18,780 nt of DNA, from positions 1 through 18,780 of IMG/VR virus record IMGVR_UViG_3300045988_003822. One strand, written 5' to 3'. Source of the DNA: a virus. The position numbers and the translations under genes are program-made. The notes below the pieces were generated by a model. That model worked only from the letters and a program-made list of their open reading frames with translations, ran no database searches and was not told where the DNA came from. Below, piece by piece: positions 1 through 18,780 of this stretch (position 1 is its first letter; each line of letters begins with the position of its first letter).

Positions 1-239
1 AAAAAGGAGGGGAGGGGCCCCAGCAGCTAGCCTTTTTCCATAACTGCTCTATCCTGTGTTCTGCATTGCTGTTGCTTTGTGTTTTTTTGTATTGCCGTTG
101 CTCTCTGTGTTTTTCGTTTCCGCTCTGTGTGTGTTTATTTCTTTGCCTTGTTTTGTCTTCGTTTTTTTTGTGTGTTTTGGGTGTGTTGTTTTTTGTGGTG
201 TGGTATGATGTAGTTATCAGCCGGTAGGGAGGTAAATAA
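1..239. repeat. Left inverted terminal repeat (ITR-L) of a linear protein-primed genome
   Basis: 1-223 is the exact reverse complement of 18558-18780. Identity continues to 239/18542 with one mismatch (g224 pairs with t18557). It starts 5'-AAAAAGGAGGGGAGGGG (17-nt polypurine). Positions 60-203 are strongly G/T-rich on the top strand, with T-tracts and degenerate ~26-bp repeats (65-90 vs 91-116). Confidence 0.95.
201..209 (+). promoter_or_regulatory. Putative extended -10 promoter element (TGgTATGAT) inside ITR-L, reading inward
   Basis: tggtatgat at 201-209 fits TGnTATAAT (and TAnnnT). It lies 32 nt upstream of ATG 241, followed by SD GGGAGG at 227-232. I found no good -35 hexamer. This is motif matching only. 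Confidence 0.35.
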
Positions 240-240
240 A

Positions 241-558
241 ATGTCTTTTGTTGAAATCAATTTTCCAGATATTTGTGAATCTGATTCTGCGGAGTATGCG
301 TATCTCGCTAACGTGTATAACACTACGTATTCACACAATCAAAACGTTTTTGGTTCGCCTGATGAAAACAAGCTTGATGGGGTCATGTATGCCGCGTGGT
401 TGTTGATGGATGAATACTATACGCGCGGTGAATATGCCATGATTGGTGAGTGCCGCCGTCTGTTGACGAAACGTTGCCGTGCGGAACTTCACAGCGAACA
501 CAATAGAGAGTTTTGCACTGGATTCTACACGGTTGTTGATTCCGTTTTGTCCATCTGA
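241..558 (+). CDS. Hypothetical early protein (105 aa), left-end inward operon
   Basis: ATG 241 lies 8 nt after SD GGGAGG, which is itself part of the ITR. The ORF is AT-richer than the late genes. No motif recognised. Confidence 0.6.
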   Translation: MSFVEINFPDICESDSAEYAYLANVYNTTYSHNQNVFGSPDENKLDGVMYAAWLLMDEYYTRGEYAMIGECRRLLTKRCRAELHSEHNREFCTGFYTVVDSVLSI

Positions 559-587
559 TAGGCGGCTTCAGGAAAGGAAATAAAAAA

Positions 588-809
588 ATGAATAACGTTC
601 TCCTCCGTCAACTGACTGCATCAGAGTTCAGCCGTATAGATAATCCACTTACTAACAGTATCTTTGCGCATTATGCGCATACAGCAATGTCAACCGCCAA
701 TCTAGCTCGCATCTATAACTACATGATGGCGTTTAGTGTCAATCCTATGCATAGTGTTGAGCGACACTTGGATGTGCTCGCTAGAGCGGAACGTGCATAT
801 AATTTTTAA
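588..809 (+). CDS. Hypothetical early protein (73 aa)
   Basis: ATG 588 is preceded by AGGAAAGGAA. It ends 10 nt before the palindromic terminator. No motif recognised. Confidence 0.55.
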   Translation: MNNVLLRQLTASEFSRIDNPLTNSIFAHYAHTAMSTANLARIYNYMMAFSVNPMHSVERHLDVLARAERAYNF

Positions 810-818
810 TAACAAATA

Positions 819-844
819 AGCCCCTAGGTTAACCTAGGGGCTTT
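819..844. terminator. Bidirectional hairpin between convergent transcription units
   Basis: A perfect 26-bp palindrome, aagcccctaggtt/aacctaggggctt. It has an A-rich 5' flank and T-rich 3' flank on the + strand. It sits between the stop at 809 (+) and the stop at 855 (-). Confidence 0.8.
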
Positions 845-854
845 CTTATGTCTG

Positions 855-1745
855 TTACTGCTGTTTGTCTGTTACTGTGATTTGCAGACTATCGAGCTTG
901 GCTTTTACGGCGTCTTGTACGGTTTTGGCGATTGTGTCGGGGTTAGCTCCCATGGATTCGGACAGTGCTTTTACTGCCGCTGTGAGCGCGGTCACTTGCG
1001 CCGTCAACGCCGGTAGCATGGTGTCATGCATTCGGATTACGTCGCTGGTCGCGTCGCTTACGATGTCTCGCGCGTATCTTCCGTTGGGGAGCTTGTGCAT
1101 CCATTGTCCGCCGACTAGTCCGGTGTCGTGCATTCTGATGACGTCGCTTGTTGCGTCGCTGATAATATCGCGTGCGGGCCGTCCGTTGGGGAGCTTGTGT
1201 GTCCAAAATCTCATGATGTCTTCATCGGTCAGTGCCATTTCGTCGTCTCCTTCTAGGATTTGGTTTGCTTTATTGATGACGTAGTTTACGTCAAGTCCGT
1301 TTGGTACGAGGTCTGGACATGCGGCATGGTCTGTTCCGGGGATTTCGCGGTGTAGCCATATGTTTCCGTTGAGTCCGTCATGCCAGAGGCGTGTCCATCC
1401 TTGGCGTCGGGCTATGTCGGCGCATAGGCGTGCGGAAGAGTTCATGCATGCTTGTGTGCAGACTGCGCCGTTGGCCATGCCTCCTTCGTGTTCGATGCTG
1501 ATTGTGGAATTGTTTGACATGTAGTTAGCGTCGCTATAACTGCCGTCGTTTTCACTCACGTACTGGTGGATGGTTCCGTCTGCGCCTATGCCGTAGTGTG
1601 CGCTTGCTTGCGTGTTGGCGTTTTGAAATGTACTGTCCGTACCTGACAGATATCCGACCATGATGTGTAATGTGATGTGTGTTATCTCGTATCCGTTGCG
1701 CCCGTTGTAATGGTTTGGTGAGCCTACCCATGTGATACCGTCCAT
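855..1745 (-). CDS. Endolysin: N-acetylmuramoyl-L-alanine amidase (Amidase_2/PGRP-type) with tandem-repeat and coiled-coil C-terminus
   Basis: The N-terminal ~165 aa have the Amidase_2 pattern (ITHITLH..., HYGIGADG, SISIEHEG, ...HREIPGTDHAACP). Two 28-aa repeats follow at a 34-aa period (WxHKLPNGRxARDIxSDATSDVIRMHDT), then an Ala/Leu-rich helical tail. The ATG overlaps the holin stop (TAATG) and follows SD GGGAGAA. Confidence 0.85.
   Translation of the reverse strand: MDGITWVGSPNHYNGRNGYEITHITLHIMVGYLSGTDSTFQNANTQASAHYGIGADGTIHQYVSENDGSYSDANYMSNNSTISIEHEGGMANGAVCTQACMNSSARLCADIARRQGWTRLWHDGLNGNIWLHREIPGTDHAACPDLVPNGLDVNYVINKANQILEGDDEMALTDEDIMRFWTHKLPNGRPARDIISDATSDVIRMHDTGLVGGQWMHKLPNGRYARDIVSDATSDVIRMHDTMLPALTAQVTALTAAVKALSESMGANPDTIAKTVQDAVKAKLDSLQITVTDKQQ
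1020..1205 (-). repeat. Intragenic tandem repeat (two ~84-nt units, 102-nt period) encoding the endolysin repeat module
   Basis: 1122-1205 and 1020-1103 encode near-identical 28-aa units. The similarity is visible at nucleotide level (...ccgttggggagcttgtg... occurs in both). Confidence 0.85.
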
Positions 1746-2107
1746 TATTCTCCCTTATGCTTGCCGTTTGTGGATTGGGCGAAGATTTGCATGAATGGCG
1801 CGTTTTTTAATTCGGGATTAATTTCGGTGATGTTTTCGAGGATTGACGTGAGTTCGATAAGGCATATCCCACCGACCGTGCAGACGAATACGGACACTGG
1901 TAGTCCCAAATCGATATGCCGGTTCACTTCATCGATAAACCATGCCACTAGCGTGAGCACGAAATATGCGAACTTGTGTCCTAGTCCCTCCCGCATTTTT
2001 CTTGAGCTGAGATTATCTTGCATGATTGCTTTTGTCACGCCCGTAACGTAGTCGGTGGTGATGAAGAACGTGACTGCTATGGTGCACCATATATCTGCTT
2101 GCGTCAT
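1745..2107 (-). CDS. Holin (Phage_holin_4_1-like)
   Basis: About 120 aa with hydrophobic helices (IWCTIAVTFFITTDYVTGV, FAYFVLTLVAWFI, VSVFVCTVGGICLIELTSIL). It has the DY.TG...SS.K..EG..HK signature and sits directly upstream of the endolysin. I prefer the ATG at 2107. The track start at 2119 is a GTG overlapping the ATPase stop (GTGA). Confidence 0.8.
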   Translation of the reverse strand: MTQADIWCTIAVTFFITTDYVTGVTKAIMQDNLSSRKMREGLGHKFAYFVLTLVAWFIDEVNRHIDLGLPVSVFVCTVGGICLIELTSILENITEINPELKNAPFMQIFAQSTNGKHKGE

Positions 2108-2115
2108 TATTATTC

Positions 2116-3219
2116 TCACTTTCTTATACCTGATTGCTGTAATAAGCCGCCAAGAATCATACCGAACTCCGCCTTGATTTGCGGAGTCTCGAATCGTAAT
2201 CTACCGACGCGATAGGCGTTCAATATTTTTTGCGTCATGTCGTCCGAACGTTTGAGCATTATGCAATCATTATCGACCAGTCGGTAGTCAAATGTAAAAT
2301 TCCTTGTGATTTTAGGCTGTTTTTTTGTGATGATATACAATACTTCGTCCGTATCGCTTAGTTGCTGATAAACGTTGAAAATACCGTATTCGGTGGTTCT
2401 TAACGTGAATGCATAACCGGCGTTATTAAAATCACTAATGAGAGTATTGGCGTTATCCCTAAAATCGTTATTGATCGCATAATTCGCATAATTCTCGTCG
2501 TATTTGCGCAAAAACTGTCCGAATTTGGATATGGCAACCTTGGCGCTGAAACCGCCGTAGTCAGCCAGTTCCACCATGATGAACCCGTCACAATATCGCT
2601 GATATTGCGTGCGATTATCTAACTGCGGTTTCAAGTTGATATTGAACGCTGAAAAATACGGATTGGCGAGGGTCACGGCATTGCTGCACATGATAACGCG
2701 AACCCTATCGTTCCAACGGTCTACCGTGTTGTAAAATTCCTCAAGCGCCGTGACCTCCCCCGCGAGATACCGCATATTATCGGGGAATATTTCGTCAAAG
2801 ATAATGGTGCGTACTCTGGGGTAGGCGACTGACTTCACCTGTCCAGCTTGTGATAGGGCGATGAAGTATCCCATGATATGCCATGTCGGACGTGTCTTGC
2901 CATGCTTGTCTGCGGTGGCGTCATGGTCATCCAGCCAGTGACATTCGGCCTGATTGCCGGATACTCTAAACTCTAGTTCTGGATATTGCTCTGCGATATC
3001 GGCAAACCAAGTGCCCTTATTTTTCTGTTCCTCTGCCGTCCGGCGCAGATAGATGAATTGCCATCGTTTCTTAATCCAGTCACCTATGACCAATTTCTTA
3101 GCTCCATAAGTCTTGCCGAGGCCGCGCGCTCCGATTATGAACATCCAAGGACTATGATAGGACAATACCCTACCATAGTCATAATAATCATTCTCGTTAA
3201 GCACGTTGACGTCACCCAT
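2116..3219 (-). CDS. DNA encapsidation (packaging) ATPase, phi29 gp16-like
   Basis: Walker A is IIGARGLGKTY and Walker B is RTIIFDEI. Collinear by-eye matches to remembered phi29 gp16 include FVIGARGIGKSY, QFIYVRR, STIVFDEF and RVRCICLSNAVSVVNPYF. Confidence 0.9.
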   Translation of the reverse strand: MGDVNVLNENDYYDYGRVLSYHSPWMFIIGARGLGKTYGAKKLVIGDWIKKRWQFIYLRRTAEEQKNKGTWFADIAEQYPELEFRVSGNQAECHWLDDHDATADKHGKTRPTWHIMGYFIALSQAGQVKSVAYPRVRTIIFDEIFPDNMRYLAGEVTALEEFYNTVDRWNDRVRVIMCSNAVTLANPYFSAFNINLKPQLDNRTQYQRYCDGFIMVELADYGGFSAKVAISKFGQFLRKYDENYANYAINNDFRDNANTLISDFNNAGYAFTLRTTEYGIFNVYQQLSDTDEVLYIITKKQPKITRNFTFDYRLVDNDCIMLKRSDDMTQKILNAYRVGRLRFETPQIKAEFGMILGGLLQQSGIRK

Positions 3220-3240: not shown

Positions 3241-4476
3241 TCAGAAGTTCGGCGGCGCACTCTTTCCATCCCATACGTTCAGCAAGCTATAGGCGGTCTG
3301 ATATCGCGTGCCATACGGGCCGAACGGTGATGTGGCCAGAATGTTGTCACGCAATCCCGCAAGCGTGGTTGCGACTGGCACATTCAGCGCGCCTGCGGGA
3401 GATTGATGGTATGCGCAGACCCATAGGATTTGCATTTTCGCGTCGTCGTATTTTTGCGGATATCCTTCGTAGTCCTTGGCGAACTGGGCGCGTTGCCCCG
3501 GATGGGATTGAGCGCGTTGCGCCCACGTCTGGAACGCCGCAACCTCGCTGCCGGTCATCGCCCTATCGAACGTGCCGCCTGAGTCCATAAGCGCGGCAAT
3601 GTCCGGGGCGGCGGCGGCGAACGTCCGATATCCATCGGCGTCCGCCGTTTTCATCGAATTCAATACTTGCAGACGGCGTCCGAAACTCCATTGCGCGATA
3701 CCGATACCTTGACGGTTAGACTCTACCGCATCCCATTGCAATGATGATTCAACCGTGCCCACCACATAAAGCGCATAACTTGACTCACCATCGCCCACGC
3801 TGGGAGATGATTGGCCTCCGTCCCCATCTGGCGCACCCGTGCCGGACGCGCCGCGATATATCCAATTCTGCGCGGTCGTCTTGACGAACAACGCCGACTT
3901 GCCGCCATTGCCAGAACCGTAATGATATATCAAATTATCGCCCTGTTGTTGTATCCATGAGGACGAACCGCCCGGCACGTCCGAACCTTGGTTGTCCCCG
4001 CCTGTGGGATTCCCTCCGTTCGGATTATTCGGAGTCGTACCGCCCGGCTGTAGGACCTTGGGATGCAGGTAGCCGAGCAGCTGCGAACCTTTGAGGAGCG
4101 GTAAGGTTTGATGGACTGCGGGAGTGGGGTTTTGCGTCAGGACGTCGATGTTATCACCCGTGACGCCATTCCATACGATTGCGACATGGGAGCCTGTATA
4201 AATCTGGCTACCATACGTCCAAAACACCACGTCACCCTTAACCGGCGTATAATTGGCGTCCATTTTCTCATACACGTTGCTGAGTGCGGCAGTATAGGGG
4301 AAGCGCGTATAGCATCCTTCGGCATAGCCGGTGGGTGTGATGCAGTCCTGTACGCTCAGACCATACATGTCCATGCTGTACTTGGCCCACAGGTCCCAAC
4401 ATTGCGCACCGTATGCGCCATCCATATCCCAGTACCGGTTTTCGGTCTGCGTAAACCATTCATCAAGTGTCGGCAT
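3241..4476 (-). CDS. Virion-associated peptidoglycan hydrolase (tail lysin): N-terminal CHAP, Gly-rich linker, C-terminal lysozyme-like domain
   Basis: CHAP signature: AYGAQCWDL (Cys) and GSHVAIVW (His). A G/N/P/S-rich linker follows. The C-terminal ...VESS...GIGIAQWSFGRR... resembles the phage tail lysozyme family. The position matches phi29 gp13. I prefer ATG 4476, because the track start 4494 is a GTG inside the upstream hairpin. Confidence 0.75.
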   Translation of the reverse strand: MPTLDEWFTQTENRYWDMDGAYGAQCWDLWAKYSMDMYGLSVQDCITPTGYAEGCYTRFPYTAALSNVYEKMDANYTPVKGDVVFWTYGSQIYTGSHVAIVWNGVTGDNIDVLTQNPTPAVHQTLPLLKGSQLLGYLHPKVLQPGGTTPNNPNGGNPTGGDNQGSDVPGGSSSWIQQQGDNLIYHYGSGNGGKSALFVKTTAQNWIYRGASGTGAPDGDGGQSSPSVGDGESSYALYVVGTVESSLQWDAVESNRQGIGIAQWSFGRRLQVLNSMKTADADGYRTFAAAAPDIAALMDSGGTFDRAMTGSEVAAFQTWAQRAQSHPGQRAQFAKDYEGYPQKYDDAKMQILWVCAYHQSPAGALNVPVATTLAGLRDNILATSPFGPYGTRYQTAYSLLNVWDGKSAPPNF

Positions 4477-4485
4477 GATACCAGT

Positions 4486-4513
4486 ATACCCCACTGCACA
4501 GGCAGTGGGGTAT
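4486..4513 (-). terminator. Strong intergenic hairpin (attenuator or RNA-stability element) between the fibre gene and the tail lysin gene
   Basis: A 12-bp stem, ataccccactgc / gcagtggggtat, with a 4-nt loop. There is no U-tract on the - strand. It ends 9 nt before ATG 4476. Confidence 0.5.
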
Positions 4514-4540
4514 TAATCCATGTTTCGCGTGGGCCAGTCG

Positions 4541-5992
4541 TCAGTTGCCGCAGATGGGAACGAACGACTGGGGCGTAATCCAGCAATTATCGGACAACGC
4601 GCCACCGCCGACCAGTCCGGTCATCCGGAGGTCCCCGCCATCCAAGTGGGCAAAAGCCATTTTACTGCCCGAATTACCGAGAATCATCACGAAGTTATCA
4701 CCCAATGCGATGAATCGCGGCAGTGTGGCAATGGTGCCATTCACGTTGCTGGCAGTGAACTTCGCGGTAAGCGTCACCACGCCGCCCGCAAACCGCCAAT
4801 ACAACTTGCCAGAACATCCGCCTTTCATGGCAACCTCACCGGCGGCTTCTCCGCACGGCTCCCCGTATCCAGCGATTGCCCACACGCAAGCCTTGGCGAT
4901 GTTGTTCTGACCGTCGTCGTTATAATGAATATCGGTGCCGTTATAGAACCAATCGGAGTGACCCATGCCTAGGGTCCACATCCATGGGTGCCACACAAAA
5001 CCATTGGCGTGGCATGCGTATTCGATGCTGGTCATGGCTTGCGCGTTCATCCACGGGATTATGGCGTTATCCCAGAGGAAAATCATGTGGAAGGCCGCGT
5101 TCGGGAATGGACGGTCAGCCTTTTGCGTTCCGGCAAGCGTGTCGAAACATGTCGTCGCCGCCGCTTGGACAATGCCGGTATCATTGCGTCCGCCGCACAC
5201 CACGACATACTTGGTCTTCTTCTTGATGTCTTCGGACAGTCCGGCGATGGCTTCGTTGGCAAGGGTCTGGAATGTCTTGCCGCCATCCCCCGTTTTCACG
5301 AAGCCGGACGCATTGTTTGCATACAGATGCAGGTTCAATCCAAGGTATGCCGCCACACGCTGCGGGATACGGTGATTTTCCGGAATACTGCCGGACGGCT
5401 GATAGCCGGTCGAATAGCTATCACCAATCCACACAAGTTCCGTGAGTTCGGTGGTGACTGCCGCAACCGCGTTCGCTGTGTTCTGCGCGGTTGCCGCCGT
5501 ACCTTTCGCCGCATTGGCGTTATTATTCGCCGTGGTGGCGGTGGAATTGATACTTGCCGCCGTACCGGAATATCCGCCAAGCTGTAAGTATCGCCCATCC
5601 GCCTGAGTTTTGGTGTACACGTCGTTGGCGTCCGCCTTGCCTGCAAGGGCACTGGCGTCGGCCTTGCCGTTGATGGTGGTCAGTAGGTTCTGCGCCGTGA
5701 CTGCGGAAGTGACGCCAAGCTCGGAGAAGTAGCCGTCCAGCTCGGCAATATCGGCCTTATTGGTCTGCGCAAGCTCCGCCGCGGTGTCGGCAGACTCTTT
5801 CGCAGCATCCGCCGCCGTCTTTGCGTTGTTCGCCGCTGCGGTCGCCGTGGTGATATTGGTGGCGTTGGCGTACATCTGATTATCGATTTTCGTCATGGCG
5901 TCGGTGAAATCGCCACGCCATGATGGCCTATCATTCGGATTGTCGCCAAATGTCGGCAGATTGTAGTGTCCGGTATGCTGTGTGGTAGACAT
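4541..5992 (-). CDS. Tail fibre/appendage protein with Ala-rich stalk, SGNH/GDSL-type esterase domain and C-terminal beta-rich domain
   Basis: Preferred start is ATG 5992 (MSTTQHTGHYNLPTF...), after AGGAAAGGGAG. The N-terminal motif is shared with the next fibre. It has the fibre motif VYTKTQADGRYL. SGNH blocks: VWIGDSYSTG (I), NNASGF (II), VVCGGRND (III), GTDIHYNDDG (V-like). Confidence 0.75.
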   Translation of the reverse strand: MSTTQHTGHYNLPTFGDNPNDRPSWRGDFTDAMTKIDNQMYANATNITTATAAANNAKTAADAAKESADTAAELAQTNKADIAELDGYFSELGVTSAVTAQNLLTTINGKADASALAGKADANDVYTKTQADGRYLQLGGYSGTAASINSTATTANNNANAAKGTAATAQNTANAVAAVTTELTELVWIGDSYSTGYQPSGSIPENHRIPQRVAAYLGLNLHLYANNASGFVKTGDGGKTFQTLANEAIAGLSEDIKKKTKYVVVCGGRNDTGIVQAAATTCFDTLAGTQKADRPFPNAAFHMIFLWDNAIIPWMNAQAMTSIEYACHANGFVWHPWMWTLGMGHSDWFYNGTDIHYNDDGQNNIAKACVWAIAGYGEPCGEAAGEVAMKGGCSGKLYWRFAGGVVTLTAKFTASNVNGTIATLPRFIALGDNFVMILGNSGSKMAFAHLDGGDLRMTGLVGGGALSDNCWITPQSFVPICGN

Positions 5993-6008
5993 TGTTATTC
6001 TCCCTTTC

Positions 6009-6428: not shown

Positions 6429-6433
6429 GATAA

Positions 6434-7069: not shown

Positions 7070-7071
7070 AA

Positions 7072-11233: not shown

Positions 11234-11255
11234 AGGGTAGCCAACCGGCTACCCT
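11234..11255 (-). terminator. Hairpin 10 nt downstream of the major capsid stop
   Basis: agggtagcc-aacc-ggctaccct: a 9-bp stem with a 4-nt loop. Position is the only evidence. Confidence 0.4.
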
Positions 11256-11264
11256 TTCATTATA

Positions 11265-13004
11265 TCACGCGGTCACGGTCACACTCTTCTTACCGGACAC
11301 GCCGAACAGCGTGGCGGTGATATCAGAGCTGCCCTCCTTAACACCGGTCACTACGCCGGACTCGGATACGGCGGCGTCAGCCGGAGTGCCGGACATCCAT
11401 GCGGCCTGTGTGGTCACGTCGGCGGTGCGTCCGTCAATCATGGTCGCCACGGCGGTCGCCTGCGCCGTATGTCCCACAGTCACATTCGGGACGGTTACGG
11501 CAATGGACGCAACGATGGACGGGTTAAATCCGATAATACCATCACCGACCACTGGCACGTCCAGAGCCGCCGACACGGTGCCCGGCACTTCGGGGGTCGC
11601 CGGATTCGTATACAGGGCGGTCGCCATCACAGGAATGGTGGTGTTCGGTTCGTCAAGGCCGACCACCAGCACGCCGGTCGGGGAGATGTAGGTGTAATCG
11701 CTCTTCGGCTTAGCGGTATCACCGATGGCGTAGCTTACCGCGTCCGACCGGAACGTGGCCGTACCGTCATTGGCAATGGTCGTATCGGCGGTGACCTGCA
11801 CCGCGCCGCCGCGCGCCACATTGCTCGGGGTTTCCGAGCCACCGCCATACATGGCGAGCTTAAGCTGGAACGTCGGCGTCTGAGCCTGTGTGCCGACCGG
11901 CGACACCACCTTGGCGGTAGACCCTGCGCCAGTCCAGAACATCACGGCGGGGGCGAAGCCGGACACGCTAATGATGTGCTGGACATGCAGATAATGGTTA
12001 ACCGAATTGATGTTGACCGGATTGGTCTGCTGAGTCATCTCGTTGATAACGGGAATGTCAATCAGGAACTTGTCGGTAGTCAGGATGGCCTGTACGCCGT
12101 CCATGCCGAACCTGTCTTGCGGGATAACGATAATCCGGTCGATGGTCGGCTCGGCGTCGGTACGCTGGAATACCGTAGCGAGGCCCTGCACGTCAAGCGC
12201 CGACTTGACTTCGGGGGAGCAGAACAGTACGAGTTCGTCCGGACGGGCGAAGGTCGGCATATGGCGAGCGTTGTACTTGGTGGAAACGAATTTCAGCGTG
12301 TCAGCCCACGCACGAATCTGGCGCAGCATGTCGCGCGCGTCGGTTTCCGAACTGCCCATGTTGTTGAGGTCATTGTTCATGTGGACACGCCAATACCCGC
12401 CAAGCTTCGCATACTCGACGAACTGGTGGCACAATGCCTCGAAAAGGTCAACTTCAGCCGCATTGTAGCAGGATGTGAGAATCTGCGAAGTGAGCGAGGC
12501 CAAACCGTTTTCGGAGGTGAAGGCACGCTGAAGCGTCTTGTCATCCGTGGTCGCAGGATACCAGTGAGCAAAGTCCAGACGGTGATAGAGCGAATCCACG
12601 TCGATTTTCCACTTGCGGAAGTTGTCTGCGCCGAGATATTCCGCATTAGGGTCATAGACCTGCGCAAGCGGCATTCCCACGGCGATTTCCTGCCACGTGT
12701 CACCGTACGCCTGCGATGCACGCTGGAAAACACTGAGCGGATTGTTCCAACGCCACGTGTTCACATAAGTGCCGCCGATACGGTTCACCAATGCCGAGTA
12801 AAACTCATTCTTCAGCTGGGTAGACGACATGAGCGTAGCCATCTGCCTATCCATATTCATCTGAGTGGCCGAGGGCATTCGCCGCTGATACTCTGGCGAC
12901 GCCTCGTTGCGAATCATATTGAGAATCTGAGCGTTATTGAATTCGGTGAGCGGTCGAAGCTGCTGCTTCGGCGTCACCACGGGAGTAGTTGCCATGATAG
13001 TCAT
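11265..13004 (-). CDS. Major capsid protein (phi29 gp8-like HK97 fold) with C-terminal Ig-like (Big_2-type) domain(s)
   Basis: The N-terminal part aligns by eye with phi29 gp8: ILNMIRNE...NEFYSALVNRIG vs IVNAIRNS...NDFITSLVDRIG. The last ~80 aa (IAVTVPNVTVGHTAQATA...DVTTQAAWMSGTPADAAVSESGVVTGVKEGSSDITATL...VTVTA) have the Big_2 pattern. The gene follows the scaffold gene. Confidence 0.9.
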   Translation of the reverse strand: MTIMATTPVVTPKQQLRPLTEFNNAQILNMIRNEASPEYQRRMPSATQMNMDRQMATLMSSTQLKNEFYSALVNRIGGTYVNTWRWNNPLSVFQRASQAYGDTWQEIAVGMPLAQVYDPNAEYLGADNFRKWKIDVDSLYHRLDFAHWYPATTDDKTLQRAFTSENGLASLTSQILTSCYNAAEVDLFEALCHQFVEYAKLGGYWRVHMNNDLNNMGSSETDARDMLRQIRAWADTLKFVSTKYNARHMPTFARPDELVLFCSPEVKSALDVQGLATVFQRTDAEPTIDRIIVIPQDRFGMDGVQAILTTDKFLIDIPVINEMTQQTNPVNINSVNHYLHVQHIISVSGFAPAVMFWTGAGSTAKVVSPVGTQAQTPTFQLKLAMYGGGSETPSNVARGGAVQVTADTTIANDGTATFRSDAVSYAIGDTAKPKSDYTYISPTGVLVVGLDEPNTTIPVMATALYTNPATPEVPGTVSAALDVPVVGDGIIGFNPSIVASIAVTVPNVTVGHTAQATAVATMIDGRTADVTTQAAWMSGTPADAAVSESGVVTGVKEGSSDITATLFGVSGKKSVTVTA

Positions 13005-13017
13005 TCCTTCCTAATTA

Positions 13018-13359
13018 TTAGTCTTCGTACAGGTCATCGAACGTGCTGTAGGTGCCGTTATAGTCGTCATCGGTCATTTCAGCCGATTCCGGCGTCGCAA
13101 CGTCGTCGGGGCCATCGTTCAGCACGTGGTCTGCTGCCGCATCACGCATCGCTTCGACGGTTTTGGACAGCTCCGCCACGGTTGCCTCCAATGCGCTCAG
13201 CCGGTCGGCCATGTCGGCGTTTTTGTCGTCGCCCGCGTCTTCAGGCTCGCCATCATCCTGCGTTTCAGGTTCCGGGTTCGGCGTATTGTCGTCGGCGCTC
13301 CCGTCCGGTTCAGTGTCGGGCGTGGTGTCCAGCTTGTCATCATTTTCGGTGTCGTCCAT
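13018..13359 (-). CDS. Scaffolding protein (very acidic, central helix)
   Basis: 113 aa and extremely D/E-rich, with a helical core (ADRLSALEATVAELSKTVEAMRDAAA). It lies directly upstream of the capsid gene, like phi29 gp7. I prefer ATG 13359, 5 nt after GAGG. The track start 13365 is a GTG. Confidence 0.7.
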   Translation of the reverse strand: MDDTENDDKLDTTPDTEPDGSADDNTPNPEPETQDDGEPEDAGDDKNADMADRLSALEATVAELSKTVEAMRDAAADHVLNDGPDDVATPESAEMTDDDYNGTYSTFDDLYED

Positions 13360-13379
13360 AATCACCTCTTAAAGTAGAT

Positions 13380-13407
13380 GGCACGGCAGCAATCACGCTG
13401 CCGTGCC
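13380..13407 (-). terminator. Hairpin at the early/late boundary (end of the replication operon and/or 5' element of the late mRNA)
   Basis: An 11-bp GC-rich stem, ggcacggcagc / gctgccgtgcc, with a 6-nt loop. On the - strand it is followed by AUCUACUUUA, then SD and ATG 13359. Confidence 0.5.
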
Positions 13408-13545
13408 GGATTGCTAGGCTGTGCGGGTTCCCTCGCCGTCAATGGGCGTTGGCTACGCACGTCTACATCCGACCGAATCGCCTTACCGATTGCCTACCGG
13501 TCGGGCCATTGAATCGGCTTGGGACGCACACCCCGCTACCGGCTA
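13408..13545 (-). ncRNA. Candidate structured non-coding RNA (function unknown; a pRNA-like or regulatory leader is speculative)
   Basis: This ~140 nt lies downstream of the polymerase stop, has no plausible ORF on either strand, and contains several nested inverted repeats. One example is CCGACCG...AAUCG-GUAAGG-CGAUU-CGGUCGG at 13469-13504. There is no covariation or expression evidence. Confidence 0.2.
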
Positions 13546-15015
13546 TTATAGCACAAAAAAACAGCCGTCATCGTTGACATGGCGTGACCTCGGCAGGAAG
13601 TCGTCGTAGGGGATAGGGGCTGCTCGATGCACGCCACTCAACCGCATCACCGTGCCGCCGTCTTCCTCTACGCCGCAATATTTGCGATTACCGAGAATGC
13701 GAAGTTTTTTATAGGTGTGGTCGTTTTTCCACGCGCCCAGCTTCTTGTCGTCCGTTTCGATGCTTGCGGGCGCTTCCAGTCCTTCCAATATCATGCCGTC
13801 CGTATCGGCGTAGAGCACACGGTCGGCGTTCGCATTCATCGCGCGGGATAATATTTGCCGACCGTAGGCATTGACATAGGCGGCGGTCGGCAACCATGCG
13901 AGTGAGTTGGTTGACTCAGGTTTATCCACAGTAAAATCCACACCCCCTTCGCCAGAGGGTTTCGGGTGCAGCATGGGTCGGTAAAGCGAGGCTCCAAACT
14001 TTCCGACCAGTGAGTTTAATAATAGTTTCGCCATTTGCCGACGCTCGCCGGTTGCGGTTTGCTTCACGTGAAACCACTTATCAACGTAATCGTAATAAAG
14101 TCCATGCGATTTCCGGAATTTCCAACCACCTACATAATCCCACACATGGACGTCATAGTTTTCCACAAGCGTCCGCCAGTCCACATCAGTCACCGGCATG
14201 GTAACGACACCCAGCGTGCTATCCATACGTTCGCCCTCATATCCCCATACTGGCAGGATATTGGTGAGCGTCGCCGTTTTTCCCGGTTTTAGTCGCGCGT
14301 CGAACGCGATAATGTCGATGTGCAGCGGATAGTCTGCGTCATAATGATATTCTCCCCCATACCATAGGGGGGAGCCTATAGGCATGGCAAAGTCTCGCAT
14401 GATGCTCGGATAAAGACTATTCACGTCCCAGCTGTTGCAATCCCGATATTCGCCCGGCCTGCTGTGCACTATCGCTCCATAGTATGCGGGGCGCATTCGG
14501 TGATAATCATCCTTGGACAATGGAGGAAAGTGACGTTTGAATCCGGCGTAATCTCCGCCGATATAGTCGGACATCGCCATTGACGCTATTGTAGTACCCT
14601 TAAGGTTCAGGGCGTCGCATTCCTGCGCGATGTTCCACGTGGTTTCCAAGTCATCCGCACCACCAAACGTTTCACGTGAGACATTCAGCCCGTCATCTCG
14701 TGTGATATTGCGCACGTCCAAAAAATCCACGGTGATACCGCCCATACGCACCCGGAAACTGTAGAAATGACCACGAATGTTGAACGTGCCCCAGACTCCA
14801 TCCTTAGCCGGATTCGATTGCAAGGGGAGACGTCTCAATAACTCAGCCGCTATAGGTTTGATGTCCTGCCATCCGTGAGCGCACCATACGCGCGTATGGT
14901 GGTCAAGCATGGTTAGCCGAACGACGGCATTCGCCGTCAATGGCGCTATGCCGTCATCCGTCAATAGTGTTGCGCCGTCTGTTGCCGCCGTTCGACGCTC
15001 TCGCATAATTCCCAT
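13546..15015 (-). CDS. Protein-primed family-B DNA polymerase (phi29 gp2-like) with a shortened, motif-degenerate exonuclease domain
   Basis: Motif A is WDVNSLYPSIM, motif B is KLLLNSLVGKFG, motif C is LYADTDGMI, plus YYGA (YxGG/A). TPR1-region match: DADYPLHIDII vs phi29 DEDYPLHIQHI. Also LGAWKND vs LGYWAHE and RKY vs KTY. It is 489 aa against 575 aa for phi29. An alternative ATG at 15006 has better SD spacing. Confidence 0.92.
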   Translation of the reverse strand: MGIMRERRTAATDGATLLTDDGIAPLTANAVVRLTMLDHHTRVWCAHGWQDIKPIAAELLRRLPLQSNPAKDGVWGTFNIRGHFYSFRVRMGGITVDFLDVRNITRDDGLNVSRETFGGADDLETTWNIAQECDALNLKGTTIASMAMSDYIGGDYAGFKRHFPPLSKDDYHRMRPAYYGAIVHSRPGEYRDCNSWDVNSLYPSIMRDFAMPIGSPLWYGGEYHYDADYPLHIDIIAFDARLKPGKTATLTNILPVWGYEGERMDSTLGVVTMPVTDVDWRTLVENYDVHVWDYVGGWKFRKSHGLYYDYVDKWFHVKQTATGERRQMAKLLLNSLVGKFGASLYRPMLHPKPSGEGGVDFTVDKPESTNSLAWLPTAAYVNAYGRQILSRAMNANADRVLYADTDGMILEGLEAPASIETDDKKLGAWKNDHTYKKLRILGNRKYCGVEEDGGTVMRLSGVHRAAPIPYDDFLPRSRHVNDDGCFFVL

Positions 15016-15021
15016 CCTTTT

Positions 15022-15969
15022 TTAGTGTCTTGCTGCGCTGGTCATCCATTCATCAAGTCGTGTCTCTACGTCTCCTGCGTCTGCTTTAGTCTCCCATTTG
15101 TGCGCCTTATCATTATACCATGTTGCCTCACGCACGACGACGCTGAAATTCGTGTTGTTTATCAGCCATCGTTTTTGTCGGTTTGACAAAGAGGCGAATT
15201 TTTGAGCTACGCTAGAGTTGAACGCTTCGAGCTGTTGCGCGGCCTTGTCAAAATCCGAAACACCTTCGTTTTCAGAAATCCGCCTAGTTCCCGCACGCAA
15301 CGGCGCACGTCCTACAAGTCCGGCGTATTGAAGCACCTCCCGTTCAAGCCTCCTACGGCTTCCCTCTCGAATCATCGCACGCGCATGGCTTATTCCACGC
15401 TCTGTACCGAACACGTTCGCACGGCTTCGCATGAGTTCGTCACGTGCTGACCCGCCGACCGTATGAGTGCCCAGCACATCGAACGGAGATTCACCTGCAC
15501 GTTCCATTTCACGCATTTCACCTACGGTATAACTAGCCATACTCAGCGCCTCGAATTGTTGAGCACGCTTGATTTTCTGCCGTGCCTCGACTCGGCGGCG
15601 CTGCTGCTGCCGCAATGTTTTCCGACGTTTCGACGGGGCGGCGGCGATTTCCGCGTCGCTTATTAGAGGACGTGACGCCATTTCACGGTCAAGTTTCGTG
15701 ACATGGACGTCGGGAACAACCTGATACGGCTCATTGTCCCGCGCCCTTAAGGCTTGCTGTTGTTCTCCAAACTCCTGCCCGATACGTCGCGCGACCTGTT
15801 CAAGCTGTTGGACACTGAGGTTCCCTAAAAACGTTTCGGTAATTTGCTTGGGGAGGCGTCCGGTACTGTAATCCCTAACTGCTCTCTCCCGGCGCACCTG
15901 TGCCGACCTGATTGCGGCGTTGCGTTTCAGATTGTTGGCGCGTCGGCTATTTTTTTTGCGTTTTGCCAC
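15022..15969 (-). CDS. Terminal protein candidate (priming protein)
   Basis: It lies immediately upstream of the protein-primed polymerase, like phi29 gene 3. It has a highly basic N-terminus (VAKRKKNSRRANNLKRN...), is helical and charged, and is 315 aa. I prefer GTG 15969, 6 nt after AGGAG. ATG 16047 would translate through a terminator hairpin and lacks an SD. There is no direct sequence match; the call is positional. Confidence 0.55.
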   Translation of the reverse strand: MAKRKKNSRRANNLKRNAAIRSAQVRRERAVRDYSTGRLPKQITETFLGNLSVQQLEQVARRIGQEFGEQQQALRARDNEPYQVVPDVHVTKLDREMASRPLISDAEIAAAPSKRRKTLRQQQRRRVEARQKIKRAQQFEALSMASYTVGEMREMERAGESPFDVLGTHTVGGSARDELMRSRANVFGTERGISHARAMIREGSRRRLEREVLQYAGLVGRAPLRAGTRRISENEGVSDFDKAAQQLEAFNSSVAQKFASLSNRQKRWLINNTNFSVVVREATWYNDKAHKWETKADAGDVETRLDEWMTSAARH

Positions 15970-15993
15970 ATCCCTCTCCTTGCGAGTATAAAA

Positions 15994-16031
15994 CACCCCT
16001 CGCCGCAAAAGATGGGAAACGGCGAGGGGTG
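15994..16031 (-). terminator. Intrinsic terminator/attenuator between the SSB gene and the terminal-protein gene
   Basis: On the - strand: a 12-bp GC-rich stem (cacccctcgccg / cggcgaggggtg), a 14-nt loop, then GUUUUAU, followed by the SD and GTG of the next gene. Confidence 0.65.
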
Positions 16032-16093
16032 AGTTTGGCGGCAACATCCCTATAGGGACATTGTCATGATATCATACGGTGCGGACAATCGTA

Positions 16094-16531
16094 TTACTTG
16101 CGCTTGTTTTCCGACACCAGTTCGAGGTCGAAGAACTTATAGCCACGGCGACTTTTCTTTTCTACCACCTTGAGAACAAGTGGCTGATTCCACGTGTCCG
16201 GCGTGCCGAAAATGGCGAACAGATTACCGAATGCGTGCGCAAGCGTGGGGGAGGCTGCGGCAAAATCGCCTTCCTCCGCGTGAATGACGACACGAGTGGA
16301 CGGATTGGTTTCACCAGTCTCCTGATTGGCAACTTCGATGGTCTGCGCCAGCACGTTGGTGACATGCAGTAGCTCATTGAGGTGGTCATCTACCTTATCG
16401 GCGGTTTGCATGGCACTGTACAGCGCCATCTTGCCGTCCATAGAAGAAGTATCGAAAAAGTGGGATACGGCGTTAGTGCCGTTCGCAGAAAAGTTGTTGC
16501 CGTTCATTACGGTCAGTTCGTTGTCAGCCAT
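16094..16531 (-). CDS. Phage single-stranded DNA-binding protein (lactococcal-phage SSB-like family)
   Basis: The pattern ...ALYSAMQTADKVDDHLNELLHVTNVL...ETGE...RVVIHAEEGDFAAAS...FGNLFAIFGTPDTWNQPLVLKVVEKKSRRGYKFFDLELV matches, from memory, the small phage SSB family of Gram-positive phages. It sits where phi29 gene 5 sits. The SD is AGGAAAGG. Confidence 0.5.
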   Translation of the reverse strand: MADNELTVMNGNNFSANGTNAVSHFFDTSSMDGKMALYSAMQTADKVDDHLNELLHVTNVLAQTIEVANQETGETNPSTRVVIHAEEGDFAAASPTLAHAFGNLFAIFGTPDTWNQPLVLKVVEKKSRRGYKFFDLELVSENKRK

Positions 16532-16558: not shown

Positions 16559-16873
16559 TTAATTATTTTCCTCGGCGATAATATCATCTTCAACCACGTT
16601 GCCGTTAACCGGCCCCGGATAGTCGATAATGGTATCATCCCCAAATTCGCAATTAGCCCAATAGATTGCCTCGTCCATGCGCGTCTCCTGCGCATGATAT
16701 TCGGCGGACATTGGTAGCATGTCCTTGTTGATCTTTCGGGCTTTTTTCATAGCCATGTCAGCTGTACGGCACGCGCCATTCACGACTACCTCAGTGTCAA
16801 CGAGTTCACCGTTTTCACCGCGCGTAATGCCGCGCACAATACTGTAATGCTTGGCTCTCTTAATGTATGCCAT
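16559..16873 (-). CDS. Small protein with acidic C-terminal tail; possible p6-like dsDNA-binding/origin-organising protein
   Basis: About 104 aa, in the phi29 gene 6 position upstream of the SSB. It shows loose by-eye similarity to p6 (NGELV...G.C.T.DMAMKKARK vs DGEVQ...GNLTMEQAQWRMKRK) and has an acidic tail, VVEDDIIAEENN. ATG 16873 has better SD spacing than ATG 16879. Confidence 0.3.
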   Translation of the reverse strand: MAYIKRAKHYSIVRGITRGENGELVDTEVVVNGACRTADMAMKKARKINKDMLPMSAEYHAQETRMDEAIYWANCEFGDDTIIDYPGPVNGNVVEDDIIAEENN

Positions 16874-16890
16874 AATCATACCGCCTTATC

Positions 16891-17421
16891 TTATTGTCGC
16901 TGCTGTTGTGACATTCTTGCAATGTCTTCATCAGTATACCGCATGTCAGTGAGATTGTCAAAACAACGACACGCGATTTTAACAACAGTCTGGGCAAATT
17001 CATTACCATCCCAGACCTTGCACATTTCATAGCATGTCGCACCCTTGACATGACAGACGGCACACCACGCCACCATGGCCGGAGCATAAATAACGCCGCC
17101 CAACATTTCAATATCCAGAGTTCGCCCCAACGCGCCGATACGAGATGTGGAGGGGGACAATGATAGGCAAACGTTTGCCGCATGTTCGATACCGTCTGCA
17201 AACGCCACTTGCGCCCCTTGAGGTTTATAAAAGTCCTTGAGCAGTGCTATACTACGGCATAATGTTTCCCAATCGCCCTCACCTCGATTATATTCACGCA
17301 AGTGCAACCCACGCCGCCGACCACGAATGACACGGCGCACACGGTCATCATCCAGCACGCCATCATCAAACCAGTTTGTACGTTTGTCATTTTCATCAAA
17401 AGTCAAATTCTTCGGCTTCAT
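16891..17421 (-). CDS. Hypothetical early protein (176 aa), Cys-rich C-terminal half
   Basis: A tightly packed ORF with GGAG 8 nt upstream. It contains WCAVCHVKGATCYEMC...IACRC, a possible metal-binding cluster. No family recognised. Confidence 0.6.
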   Translation of the reverse strand: MKPKNLTFDENDKRTNWFDDGVLDDDRVRRVIRGRRRGLHLREYNRGEGDWETLCRSIALLKDFYKPQGAQVAFADGIEHAANVCLSLSPSTSRIGALGRTLDIEMLGGVIYAPAMVAWCAVCHVKGATCYEMCKVWDGNEFAQTVVKIACRCFDNLTDMRYTDEDIARMSQQQRQ

Positions 17422-17423: not shown

Positions 17424-17627
17424 TTAAAACTCCAATGTATCCTCACTAAACCCGGCACCATACAACCACATGTTTAACCACACAGCCTTATCAGGGCACC
17501 GTTTCGGCGGATTATAAGCGCTACGCCTATGCCGTGCGCCAGCCCAAAAAGCGCGCAAACGCCAATACGCATCAGCGTCAGGACAATTGCCGCACGTCCG
17601 CGAATGAATCCAACCACGGAAATACAT
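17424..17627 (-). CDS. Hypothetical early protein (67 aa)
   Basis: It exactly fills the gap between its neighbours. The ATG lies 2 nt after the upstream TAG, with AGGGA upstream. It has a CGNC...C pattern. It is short, so the call is uncertain. Confidence 0.45.
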   Translation of the reverse strand: MYFRGWIHSRTCGNCPDADAYWRLRAFWAGARHRRSAYNPPKRCPDKAVWLNMWLYGAGFSEDTLEF

Positions 17628-17629
17628 AA

Positions 17630-17878
17630 CTAATCCCTATCCAAGAGAGGCGTACGGGCAATGTCGATAGCATCAAGCATAAGGTCAACCACTTGACTGC
17701 CGTCACCAGCGTCATACGCGCACAAGGCTGACGCGCCACACACGCCACCGGACGGCGTACGAAGCTGAACGGCATACCGAAGTTCATACCTGTGGCCATG
17801 AGGACAATACCACAGACGCACGCCACCGCCTACAAAAGGCGACGCAAACACGGCAACATTCATATCATTCCTACACAT
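17630..17878 (-). CDS. Hypothetical early protein (82 aa)
   Basis: ATG 17878 lies 1 nt after the stop of the 55-aa ORF, with GAAGGG 8 nt upstream. No motif recognised. Confidence 0.55.
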   Translation of the reverse strand: MCRNDMNVAVFASPFVGGGVRLWYCPHGHRYELRYAVQLRTPSGGVCGASALCAYDAGDGSQVVDLMLDAIDIARTPLLDRD

Positions 17879-17879
17879 T

Positions 17880-18047
17880 TCAAAAACCCTTCACTACAAA
17901 AACCAACACCACAATCACACTCGATGCAAGTATAGCCAAAAAACAGAAAACGTCACTCCTATCACGAGGTGTTTCGGAAAACGCAGCCGCACATGGTGCA
18001 ATAAGTAGAACCACAAACAATATGACAACAATACTCATATCAATCAT
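17880..18047 (-). CDS. Small two-TM membrane protein (55 aa), absent from the supplied ORF track
   Basis: My manual translation is MIDMSIVVILFVVLLIAPCAAAFSETPRDRSDVFCFLAILASSVIVVLVFVVKGF. ATG 18047 overlaps the upstream stop (TAATG). Its TGA is followed 1 nt later by the next ATG. There are two hydrophobic helices around a charged loop. Confidence 0.6.
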   Translation of the reverse strand: MIDMSIVVILFVVLLIAPCAAAFSETPRDRSDVFCFLAILASSVIVVLVFVVKGF

Positions 18048-18277
18048 TATACCAGCACCACCTTTACCACGCCAACCATGGTGCTATCCATGTCAAACGT
18101 AGCATTGTCAATATCCACATCCACGTCCACACCGACGTACATTTTTTTAACATAAGACAGCACGCCGTCCAATGAGGATTTCAAAGACGCCGTAAGAAAC
18201 ATGCCGCTAGGCTTCACGCAATCGGGTAGAATCTCAAACACCTGAAAACCAGCATTAGTAATAATAAAATACCACAC
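18047..18277 (-). CDS. Hypothetical early protein (76 aa)
   Basis: The GTG start at 18277 lies 6 nt after AGGAAGAGGG. No motif recognised. Confidence 0.55.
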   Translation of the reverse strand: MWYFIITNAGFQVFEILPDCVKPSGMFLTASLKSSLDGVLSYVKKMYVGVDVDVDIDNATFDMDSTMVGVVKVVLV

Positions 18278-18296
18278 AGTAAGCCCTCTTCCTAAA

Positions 18297-18542
18297 TCAC
18301 TTGTTAGTCAAGGCGTCAATTACCGCTTCAGCGATAGTGTCACCAGTTCCCAAAACAACAACAGGACGACAATATCTAACACAAACGGCATAATACACCT
18401 CAACCGCGTCCACCTCACGCCCATCTTCTGTAGTACAATAGTATGGAATCCCAACCCTTTTGTCGTAAGCGCGTGCCATCAATTCCCGCACCTCCTCGAC
18501 ACTAACGCCCGCTTCTTCTGCAATTTGCTTATAACTATTCAT
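18297..18542 (-). CDS. First right-end early protein (81 aa); N-terminus weakly HTH-like
   Basis: ATG 18542 uses the SD supplied by ITR-R. The N-terminal YKQIAEEAGVSVEEVRELMARA looks like a helix-turn-helix, but this is only a pattern impression. Confidence 0.6.
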   Translation of the reverse strand: MNSYKQIAEEAGVSVEEVRELMARAYDKRVGIPYYCTTEDGREVDAVEVYYAVCVRYCRPVVVLGTGDTIAEAVIDALTNK

Positions 18543-18780
18543 TATTTACCTCCCTATCGGCTGATAACTACATCATACCACACCACAAAAAACAACACAC
18601 CCAAAACACACAAAAAAAACGAAGACAAAACAAGGCAAAGAAATAAACACACACAGAGCGGAAACGAAAAACACAGAGAGCAACGGCAATACAAAAAAAC
18701 ACAAAGCAACAGCAATGCAGAACACAGGATAGAGCAGTTATGGAAAAAGGCTAGCTGCTGGGGCCCCTCCCCTCCTTTTT
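18542..18780. repeat. Right inverted terminal repeat (ITR-R)
   Basis: Reverse complement of 1-239, as described for ITR-L. The window ends ...CCCCTCCCCTCCTTTTT-3'. Confidence 0.95.
18572..18580 (-). promoter_or_regulatory. Mirror copy of the ITR extended -10 element, reading inward into the right early operon
   Basis: Identical sequence by ITR symmetry. It is followed by the same GGGAGG SD and then ATG 18542 of the first - strand gene. Confidence 0.35.

Follow-up and report, generated by a model that had tools for sequence, protein, structure and literature searches.

A phi29-like podophage genome, most likely from a Bifidobacterium of the human gut, and a structured RNA proposed as counterpart of the packaging RNA

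We analysed the virus record IMGVR_UViG_3300045988_003822 over its whole length, a linear stretch of 18,780 bp that we call the window. We read it as the complete linear genome of a virulent podophage related to phage phi29, most likely infecting a Bifidobacterium of the human gut, and we put the probability of this reading at roughly 85%. As part of it, we propose that a structured RNA, encoded in the gap between the DNA polymerase gene and the putative scaffold gene, is the counterpart of the packaging RNA (prohead RNA, pRNA) of phi29. An earlier note on this stretch, made from its letters, had already taken it for a complete, protein-primed, phi29-like linear genome. That view holds: the window has inverted terminal repeats (ITRs), the phi29 gene set, a polymerase with the TPR1 and TPR2 regions, and collinear relatives.

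The two ends are inverted repeats, as noticed before, and their length is 239 nucleotides (nt). A base-by-base comparison of the two arms gives a single mismatch, at repeat position 224, which means that the arms are two independent copies. The 5' terminus of the genome reads 5'-AAAAAGGAGGGGAGGGG, and the contigs of 10 independent relatives in IMG/VR stop at most 5 nt (0-5) from the same terminus, AAAA(A)GGAGGGGAGGGG. This common terminus argues for true physical ends of the window. The minus strand carries nearly all genes, between 18542 and 855. The first of them, an early gene, has an ATG that begins on the final base of the right ITR (18542). Only two small genes are on the plus strand.

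The genes were identified by profile searches of the window proteins against Pfam, PHROGs and NCBIfam. We found the phi29-type major capsid protein (MCP), gp9, gp10, gp11 and gp16, all of them above the Pfam gathering score or with a strong PHROGs match. Among the matches there is no integrase, repressor or other lysogeny family, so the absence of lysogeny genes suggested in the earlier note stands. In addition, the window has in common with phi29 (Salasmaviridae) the protein-primed polymerase with TPR1 and TPR2, a phi29-type single-stranded DNA-binding protein (SSB), a gp13-like protein and the terminal A-run. On the other hand, the ITR of phi29 is 6 nt long, the early and late genes of the window are co-directional, its ATPase gene comes before the lysis genes and it has no separate head-fibre gene. 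Furthermore, the window polymerase is 86 amino acids (aa) shorter than that of phi29 and lacks the ExoI, ExoII and ExoIII motifs, and the candidate pRNA is found between the polymerase and scaffold genes instead of at the genome end. The phi29-like gene order that had been proposed is correct for the gene set but not for the strict order: the ATPase precedes holin and endolysin, as in Av-1 and unlike in phi29. The co-directional operons had been pointed out as a difference from phi29. The observation is correct, but the same layout is the rule among the actinobacterial relatives Av-1, Anjali, Reje, BadAztec1, BD811P2 and BP1.

Next, we looked at the relatives of the window. A megablast search against a collection of 50,697 phage records gave a sole match, the lysis cassette, which covers 5% of the genome and is 76.5% identical to that of the B. 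dentium phage BD811P2. No classified phage reaches the genome-wide nucleotide identity of 70% or 95% that would place it in the same genus or species. The best matches of the capsid protein belong to the Bifidobacterium phages BadAztec, BadAargau, BP1 and BD811P (36-42% identity), followed by Arthrobacter and Curtobacterium phages. The cultured podophages BadAztec1 (ICTV genus Badaztecvirus, NC_048858), BD811P2 (NC_073478) and BP1 (PQ571273) are collinear with the window gene for gene, at 26-79% aa identity; with tblastn we found homologues for 20 of the 24 open reading frames (ORFs) in at least one of the three, in conserved order. The common order is ITR, small early genes, SSB, terminal protein, short polymerase, gap, scaffold, MCP, gp9, gp10, gp11, fibres, lysin, gp16, holin, endolysin and a short opposed unit. 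Long ITRs, polymerases of 445-496 aa and the position of the RNA in a gap of about 180-230 nt are also shared. The differences lie in the sequences: the MCPs are 36-42% and the polymerases 33-37% identical to those of the window at the aa level, nucleotide similarity is limited to the lysis cassette (BD811P2), and the fibres are unrelated beyond an N-terminal module. Av-1 (Dybvigvirus), the Arthrobacter phage Anjali and the Curtobacterium phage Reje are co-directional as well, with the ATPase before the lysis genes, and Av-1 has a long ITR (210 nt, compared to 259 nt in BadAztec1). However, their polymerases are full-length (566-598 aa) and their MCPs only about 35% identical to that of the window.

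In IMG/VR there are at least 122 uncultivated contigs with a related capsid protein, matching the window at about 80-90% nucleotide identity. We kept 80 of them as the set of relatives for the analysis of conservation, and in these the capsid protein is 91-96% identical. The best relatives reach about 85-90% nucleotide identity over 14-16 kb; none of them is identical or classified, and there is no copy of the exact capsid protein sequence on record. The earlier note had itself named a near-identical, classified genome as the finding that would speak against its reading, and the database searches found none. Because of this, the window is a new, roughly genus-level member of the clade that holds Badaztecvirus, BD811P1-3 and BP1. 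The lineage was also taken to be probably poorly described. This is overstated and only partly right: these named phages, the published surveys and the IMG/VR contigs show that the wider group is already known. For example, Badaztecvirus, BD811P1 and a 'human gut phage', for which a Bifidobacterium host is suggested, are among the phi29-like phages listed in a 2024 review (PMC11476376), and more than 200 Salasmaviridae-like viral operational taxonomic units, some of them infecting Actinobacteria, were reported from the infant-gut virome (PMC10159846).

Bifidobacterium is the most likely host, judging by the closest cultured relatives, the lysis cassette, the label of a polymerase cluster and the homologues of the amidase. 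The polymerase cluster in question, at 87% identity, is labelled 'MAG: DNA polymerase [Bifidobacterium breve]' (MAG, metagenome-assembled genome). The nearest cellular amidase homologues are from Bifidobacterium in four out of five cases (B. angulatum, B. bombi, B. imperatoris and B. margollesii), the fifth being in an Acidaminococcaceae MAG. A high-GC Gram-positive host had been suspected before, and with all closest cultured relatives infecting Bifidobacterium this suspicion is supported.

To describe the gap between polymerase and scaffold genes, we compared nine divergent genomes (including L002, which is BD811P2, and L003, which is BP1). A non-coding gap of 171-230 nt is kept in all nine. 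In the window it has 180 nt (13366-13545, minus strand), and its gene-sense strand folds with a minimum free energy of -85.6 kcal/mol (z -4.5). Of all 150-nt bins of the genome, the one that holds the gap is the most conserved: among the 80 relatives the identity is 92.5%, compared to about 66-89% in all but one other bin. For 78 distinct gap sequences, RNAalifold predicts a three-way junction enclosed by a closing helix and, apart from it, a 3' hairpin, with the variation found in the loops and compensatory changes in the stems. Since many of the pairs are G-U, the RNA can be assigned to the strand of the genes.

With a covariance model of the window clade (R1), four clades whose polymerases are 35-56% identical gave matches over the full length, in exactly this gap (E 1.6e-9 to 3.7e-5), and BadAztec1 and the genome L091 gave partial ones. 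In 700 kb of unrelated viral DNA this model found nothing. We also scanned IMG/VR for the pattern of E hairpin plus GUGAUU loop; the matches turned out to be due to chance, and as all 80 loci were negative with R1, they were used as a negative control. In an alignment of 12 sequences, 95.5% of the cells are paired, and in 36 of the 51 pairs both partners have changed (note that the alignment was fitted to the model, which favours structure). Slid controls have 5-13 such double-change pairs, and the observed values were reached in none of 500 shuffles. Every helix of the RNA is supported by covariation. In the clade of BD811P and BP1 (loci 4725-4905 in L002, 12970-13199 in L003 and about 4338-4518 in L212-L291), which was aligned with MAFFT and folded independently, the topology agrees and 14 of 40 pairs covary. 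The stems of the 3' hairpin are unrelated between clades, and its GUGAUU loop is found in eight of the nine genomes. A U-tract comes after the hairpin in BD811P2, BP1 and about 75 relatives, and beyond it, still ahead of the late genes, there is another conserved TGATATAAT box, which makes the RNA a self-contained gene in this clade. That the gap holds a real, conserved structured RNA is in our opinion very likely indeed.

To our knowledge, packaging RNA has so far been studied only in Bacillus phages. In the pRNA of phi29 (RF00044), the A helix leads into the C helix, and between C and the 4-bp E helix there is a bulge of 9 nt, present on the 5' side only. The E loop has 6 nt; after a linker of 3 nt comes the D hairpin, with 6 bp and a loop of 5 nt, and the return strand of A completes the domain. 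Our model for the window clade has the same succession from the A helix to its return strand, here with 7 bp in C, 8 nt in the 5' bulge, 4 bp and a 6-nt loop in E, 10 nt in the linker, and 4 bp and a 5-nt loop in D. After this domain I there are a linker and the 3' hairpin, like domain II of pRNA (PMC5066667). Comparing the two structure lines, we see that the window RNA has the secondary-structure architecture of pRNA (A, three-way junction, C with the CE bulge and E, D, domain II). Both have two domains, a length of about 170-180 nt, a long helix of the 5' and 3' ends, a three-way junction and a single-stranded linker between C and D, while they differ in the length of this linker, the length of the D helix and the genomic position.

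Two details of this likeness can be followed across the clades. A search for a 4-bp stem with a UU(G/A)NNU loop recovers the E hairpin of phi29, CUGA-UUGAGU-UCAG. In the gaps it finds CGUA-UUGAGU in L090, -UUGGGU in L089, -UUAGGU in L087, -UUGACU in L091 and -UUAAGU in BadAztec1, each closed by -UACG and in the same context; the loop of L090 is that of phi29. Complementarity between bulge and D loop, which in phi29 is AACC/GGUU, is found as GACUA/UAGUC in L085, GUCA/UGAC in L090, ACCAC/GUGGU in BD811P2, GCCA/UGGC in BP1 and GGC/GCC in the window. It amounts to 4-5 Watson-Crick pairs in L085, L090, L002 and L003 and is weak in L089. Within the BD811P clade, where the bulge reads (A/G)CCA and the D loop UGG(U/C), one of the pairs covaries (65 G-C, 7 G-U, 4 A-U and 0 A-C in 76 sequences). 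In our main reading, the gap carries a gene, with a putative promoter of its own, for a structured RNA about 160 nt long. As the proposed counterpart of pRNA, this RNA would link the gp10 connector to the gp16 ATPase while DNA is being packaged, and pairing of its 5' bulge with its D loop would give rings. The chances that it is a functional prohead RNA are about even in our estimate.

Two more distant phages allow a comparison. In Anjali (L292), positions 4993-5145 upstream of the scaffold gene hold an unannotated structured RNA (z -5.1) of pRNA-like architecture, with the bulge ACAGCU, the E hairpin CCCC-UUGAAU-GGGG and a 3' hairpin. The record of Av-1 (L294) has an annotated 'packaging RNA' elsewhere in the genome, at 16295-16402, which folds weakly (-14.6 kcal/mol) and does not have this architecture. 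The gap of Av-1 itself (4471-4611) has a terminator hairpin and a different fold.

The polymerase is the other unusual component. Its residues 158-447 align with residues 206-501 of the phi29 polymerase, spanning TPR1 and TPR2 (phmmer, E 4e-45), and an AlphaFold model (pLDDT 90) superposes over the full length on the phi29 enzyme (Foldseek TMq 0.84). However, the polymerases of the Bifidobacterium phages have 445-496 aa, as opposed to 550-615 aa in other phi29-like enzymes. In the long polymerases (n = 10), D and E of ExoI, N, F and D of ExoII, the SL and K motifs and Y and D of ExoIII are all invariant. In the first 140 residues of 13 diverse short polymerases, on the other hand, only D13, G14, P64, Y85, N103, R106 and G140 are (nearly) invariant. 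In place of the DxE of ExoI the short enzymes have an invariant D-G, and the signatures ExoII (Nx2-3(F/Y)D), ExoIII (Yx3D), Kx2h and (S/T)Lx2h are not conserved across the 13. The profile alignment is weak here (probability 29%), but the exonuclease fold is retained in the predicted structure. Furthermore, NSLVG takes the place of NSLYG in motif B, and the thumb is shortened by about 30 aa. As the exonuclease motifs are degenerate, we infer, reasonably in our view, that proofreading may be lost or strongly reduced. Relatives of the L090 polymerase were not found in IMG/VR.

The ORF at 15022-16047 is probably the gene of the terminal protein. An ORF at this place, between SSB and polymerase, is present in all relatives. 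Most gene callers choose the GTG at 15969 as its start, giving 315 aa, while the full ORF has 341 aa. The C-terminal 80 residues align with the priming domain in a profile of the terminal proteins of phi29, Av-1, Anjali and Reje (hhalign, E 1.8e-4, probability 49%). Y310 and T299 (numbered in the 341-aa form) are the candidates for the residue linked to dAMP. By homology, replication would start with the terminal protein priming at both ends on 3'-TTTTT termini, and the compact TPR1/TPR2 polymerase would then extend the chain. Sliding-back initiation is known for phi29, and the terminal run of five A would be compatible with it.

Several points weigh against parts of this reading, and we discuss them together with the alternatives. 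That the ends are assembly artefacts, and that the window is a circularly permuted genome or a fragment and not a complete protein-primed linear genome, deserves almost no weight. It is true that the sequence alone was at hand and that the terminal protein is weakly identified: the candidate has no Pfam, PHROGs or NCBIfam match, BLASTP against the terminal protein of Av-1 gave nothing, and its AlphaFold 2 model (pLDDT 58) is too poor for a structure search. The covalent attachment of this protein, like the transcript of the RNA, is a prediction. Against an artefact, however, speak the one-base difference between two independent ITR copies, the AAAA(A)GGAGG terminus common to 10 independent assemblies, ITRs of similar length in the cultured phages BadAztec1 and Av-1, and the complete gene set, collinear with full genomes; artefacts at the ends thus appear unlikely. 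The host assignment, too, is built on relatives and MAG labels. Another gut Gram-positive, such as another actinobacterium or a bacterium of the Clostridium group, would fit the fibre N-terminal module, which is also found in Clostridium phage CI461P1-3, and the amidase homologue in an Acidaminococcaceae MAG. The GC content of the phage, 52.8%, is also below that of gut Bifidobacterium, which is typically about 58-60%. We give such a host a slim chance, since the nearest cultured relatives for capsid, polymerase, tail knob and lysis genes all infect Bifidobacterium, the lysis cassette is close to that of a B. dentium phage at the nucleotide level, a close relative of the polymerase carries the B. 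breve label, and four of the five amidase matches are in Bifidobacterium.

The function of the RNA is less certain. The E loop of the window clade is GUAAGG. The window, L087 and L091 have no more than 3 bp of complementarity between bulge and D loop, and within the window clade these pairs do not vary. RF00044 gives no match at E<=10 in the window, L090 or L002, though it is a narrow model with a phi29-like consensus and a gathering score of 100 bits. Our own covariance models were not able to find the phi29 pRNA or the domain I of the BD811P clade. Model R2 has no wider reach (nothing for phi29, only the hairpin for BD811P2), and with it the Anjali RNA is the top match in the Anjali genome, but weakly (E 0.12). 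As neither RF00044 nor our own models link the RNAs by score, we infer their homology from topology. Known pRNAs have only about 12% sequence similarity (PMC5066667), and a model of the Bacillus-phage pRNAs was unable to find the Cp-1 pRNA reliably (PMC6266182); with pRNAs so divergent, the negative scores are weak evidence. After the 3' hairpin of the window clade we see no U-tract and no second promoter. The late mRNA would then come from read-through at the RNA promoter, and the RNA could simply be the leader of this mRNA. Potentially, it acts in cis on the late operon, as a leader or attenuator, with a promoter at the polymerase stop and with the 5' domain and the GUGAUU hairpin controlling read-through or the translation of scaffold and capsid genes. 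Such a leader might also supply the early/late switch that a co-directional genome needs. In every clade the RNA is found exactly at the boundary of early and late genes, and in the window clade its terminator-like 3' hairpin is directly upstream of the scaffold ribosome-binding site (RBS). We regard this alternative as doubtful, but well worth considering. The U-tract and separate TGATATAAT box in BD811P2, BP1 and about 75 relatives point to a transcription unit of its own, and neither the match to the pRNA topology nor the clade-specific complementarity of bulge and D loop would be expected of an attenuator. In addition, all these genomes with a called or annotated packaging gene encode a gp16-type ATPase and a gp10 connector. 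In phi29, these two proteins need pRNA.

The features of the window are listed in Table 1.

Table 1. Features of the window with position, strand and supporting remarks.
Feature	Position	Strand	Remarks
Left ITR	1-239	+	pairs with 18542-18780; begins 5'-AAAAAGGAGG; RBS GGGAGG for first gene
Extended -10 box TGGTATGAT, left ITR	201-209	+	inward-facing
105-aa ORF	241-558	+	transcribed inward from left ITR; no Pfam, PHROGs or NCBIfam match
73-aa ORF	588-809	+	no PHROGs, Pfam or NCBIfam match
Hairpin, 11-bp palindrome	818-843		between convergent operons
Endolysin, N-acetylmuramoyl-L-alanine amidase	855-1745	-	Amidase_2 E 4e-17; C-terminal tandem repeat
Holin	1745-2119	-	Phage_holin_4_1 E 2e-16
gp16-type DNA packaging ATPase	2116-3219	-	Podovirus_Gp16 E 2e-42
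gp13-like tail-associated cell-wall hydrolase	3241-4494	-	CHAP and tail lysozyme-like domain
Fibre / receptor-binding protein 1	4541-5992	-	likely ATG at 5992
Fibre protein 2	6009-6428	-	139 aa from ATG at 6428; N-terminal module as in fibre 1
Conserved tail protein, 215 aa	6434-7081	-	32% aa identity to BadAztec1 gp09 region
Lower collar, gp11-like	7072-7866	-	phrog_3225 E 1e-28; phrog_5472
Connector / upper collar, gp10	7863-8813	-	Phage_connector E 4e-42; basic N-terminus MSRSKKNR
Tail knob, gp9-like	8826-11186	-	Pfam/PHROGs
Strong 8-bp hairpin, GGUU loop	11235-11254	-	directly after capsid gene
Box TGATATAAT	11259-11267	-	overlaps capsid stop codon; precedes hairpin 11235-11254
MCP, phi29 MCP fold	11265-13004	-	Phi29_MCP E 1e-85; C-terminal Ig-like extension
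Acidic 115-aa protein, putative scaffold	13018-13365	-	position/synteny only
RNA 3' hairpin ('domain II')	13380-13407	-	12-bp stem, conserved GUGAUU loop; terminator-like
RNA domain I	13413-13536	-	long closing helix; C helix 13498-13504/13469-13475; 5' bulge GUAGGCA 13491-13497; E hairpin 13477-13490; D hairpin 13446-13458
Extended -10 box TGCTATAAT	13545-13553	-	overlaps polymerase stop codon
Protein-primed family B DNA polymerase, 489 aa	13546-15015	-	DNA_pol_B_2
Putative terminal protein	15022-16047	-	between SSB and polymerase; likely start GTG 15969, 315 aa
phi29-type SSB	16094-16531	-	E 2e-13
Seven small early ORFs	16559-16879, 16891-17421, 17424-17627, 17630-17878, 17880-18047, 18047-18277, 18297-18542	-	no family assignment
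Right ITR	18542-18780	-	238/239 identity to left arm
Promoter-like box, right ITR	18572-18580	-	copy of left box
TGNTATRRT boxes	201-209 (+), 18572-18580 (-), 18046-18054 (-), 15112-15120 (-), 13545-13553 (-), 11259-11267 (-)

The extended -10 pattern TGNTATRRT occurs 7 times in the window, compared to 2.06 expected. Six of these are on a gene-sense strand and there is one per ITR, so that both terminal genes have an identical promoter, 5' untranslated region and RBS. The box that overlaps the polymerase stop codon is a putative promoter of the conserved RNA. The last polymerase codons together with the next base read (G/A)TG(C/A)TAT(A/G)(A/G)T in all nine clades, with polymerases 33-55% identical. 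Transcription would start at the promoters of both ITRs and run inward. The right-hand unit would read the early genes, SSB, terminal protein and polymerase, and then the structural, packaging and lysis genes, while the left-hand unit would read two small genes. Both would converge on the palindromic hairpin next to the endolysin gene, a candidate bidirectional terminator. The number of terminator-like sites is not in excess (23 found, 20.4 expected from shuffles). The hairpin after the capsid gene may be an attenuator or a stabiliser of the mRNA that sets the ratio of capsid to tail proteins. By its position, the ORF at 241-558 may be analogous to the right-end early operon of phi29.

We made some side observations on these signals. 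The 9-mer AGCCGGTAG is found at 219-227 (+), 13536-13544 (-) and 8510-8518 (-), among other places downstream of the promoter in the ITR and where the RNA has its 5' end. When one mismatch is allowed, there are 10 matches where 2.6 are expected, and the ITR mismatch at position 224 is inside the motif. In the record of BP1, an ITR copy (380-527, versus 19316-19463) sits 380 nt in from the left end, and the record of BD811P2 starts within the ITR, at the TGGTATGAT box that it has in common with the window. These two deposited records are probably without true termini or mis-joined.

As for the remaining genes, the endolysin is 64% identical at the aa level to its orthologue in BD811P2, and the holin about 70% identical to those of BD811P2 and BP1. 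The starts of both fibre genes were moved to internal ATGs. The two fibres have a common N-terminal module of 50 aa (44% identity between them), presumably a tail anchor, which is also found in uncultured gut podophages and in the Clostridium phage mentioned above. Fibre 1 has a weak match to GDSL/SGNH esterases (GDS motif) and is the most variable gene among the relatives, alignable in only 9% of the loci. The earlier note had compared the fibre N-termini to actinophage minor tail proteins; we were not able to confirm this, as tblastn of both fibres against the 50,697 phage records found none. It had further described the late genes as GC-rich. This applies to the virion structural genes (3241-13365, 52-60% GC) but not to the packaging ATPase and holin, which like the small early genes have 40-55%. 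With this range and the overall value given above, the genome is moderately and not strongly GC-rich. An ORF of 630 aa at 11469-13361 (+), antisense to the capsid gene, is in our judgement probably no gene but a by-product of the high GC (73%) at third codon positions of the capsid gene.

In summary, the window would be the genome of a podophage of gut Bifidobacterium without a close cultured relative. Its clade is very common, since single polymerase clusters in public sequencing runs in some cases hold hundreds to thousands of member sequences. This is of relevance for the ecology of the infant gut, and it gives a virulent phage type for Bifidobacterium. In the literature that we searched, neither a pRNA-like RNA nor a polymerase free of exonuclease motifs is described for this clade. 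We see roughly balanced odds that the RNA between polymerase and scaffold is a true pRNA and that, at the same time, this Bifidobacterium clade replicates with a minimal protein-primed polymerase that is by nature deficient in proofreading. That exonuclease motifs cannot be recognised in so compact a polymerase bears on replication fidelity and on the minimal design of protein-primed, strand-displacing polymerases. If the RNA is functional, this would settle whether phi29-like motors outside Bacillus phages need RNA, and it would provide many new self-assembling RNA scaffolds. If it is a true pRNA, there would be a large natural set of pRNAs with differing kissing-loop specificities, and RNA-dependent gp16 motors would not be confined to Bacillus phages but ancestral to the phi29-like phages of Actinobacteria (Bifidobacterium, Arthrobacter).

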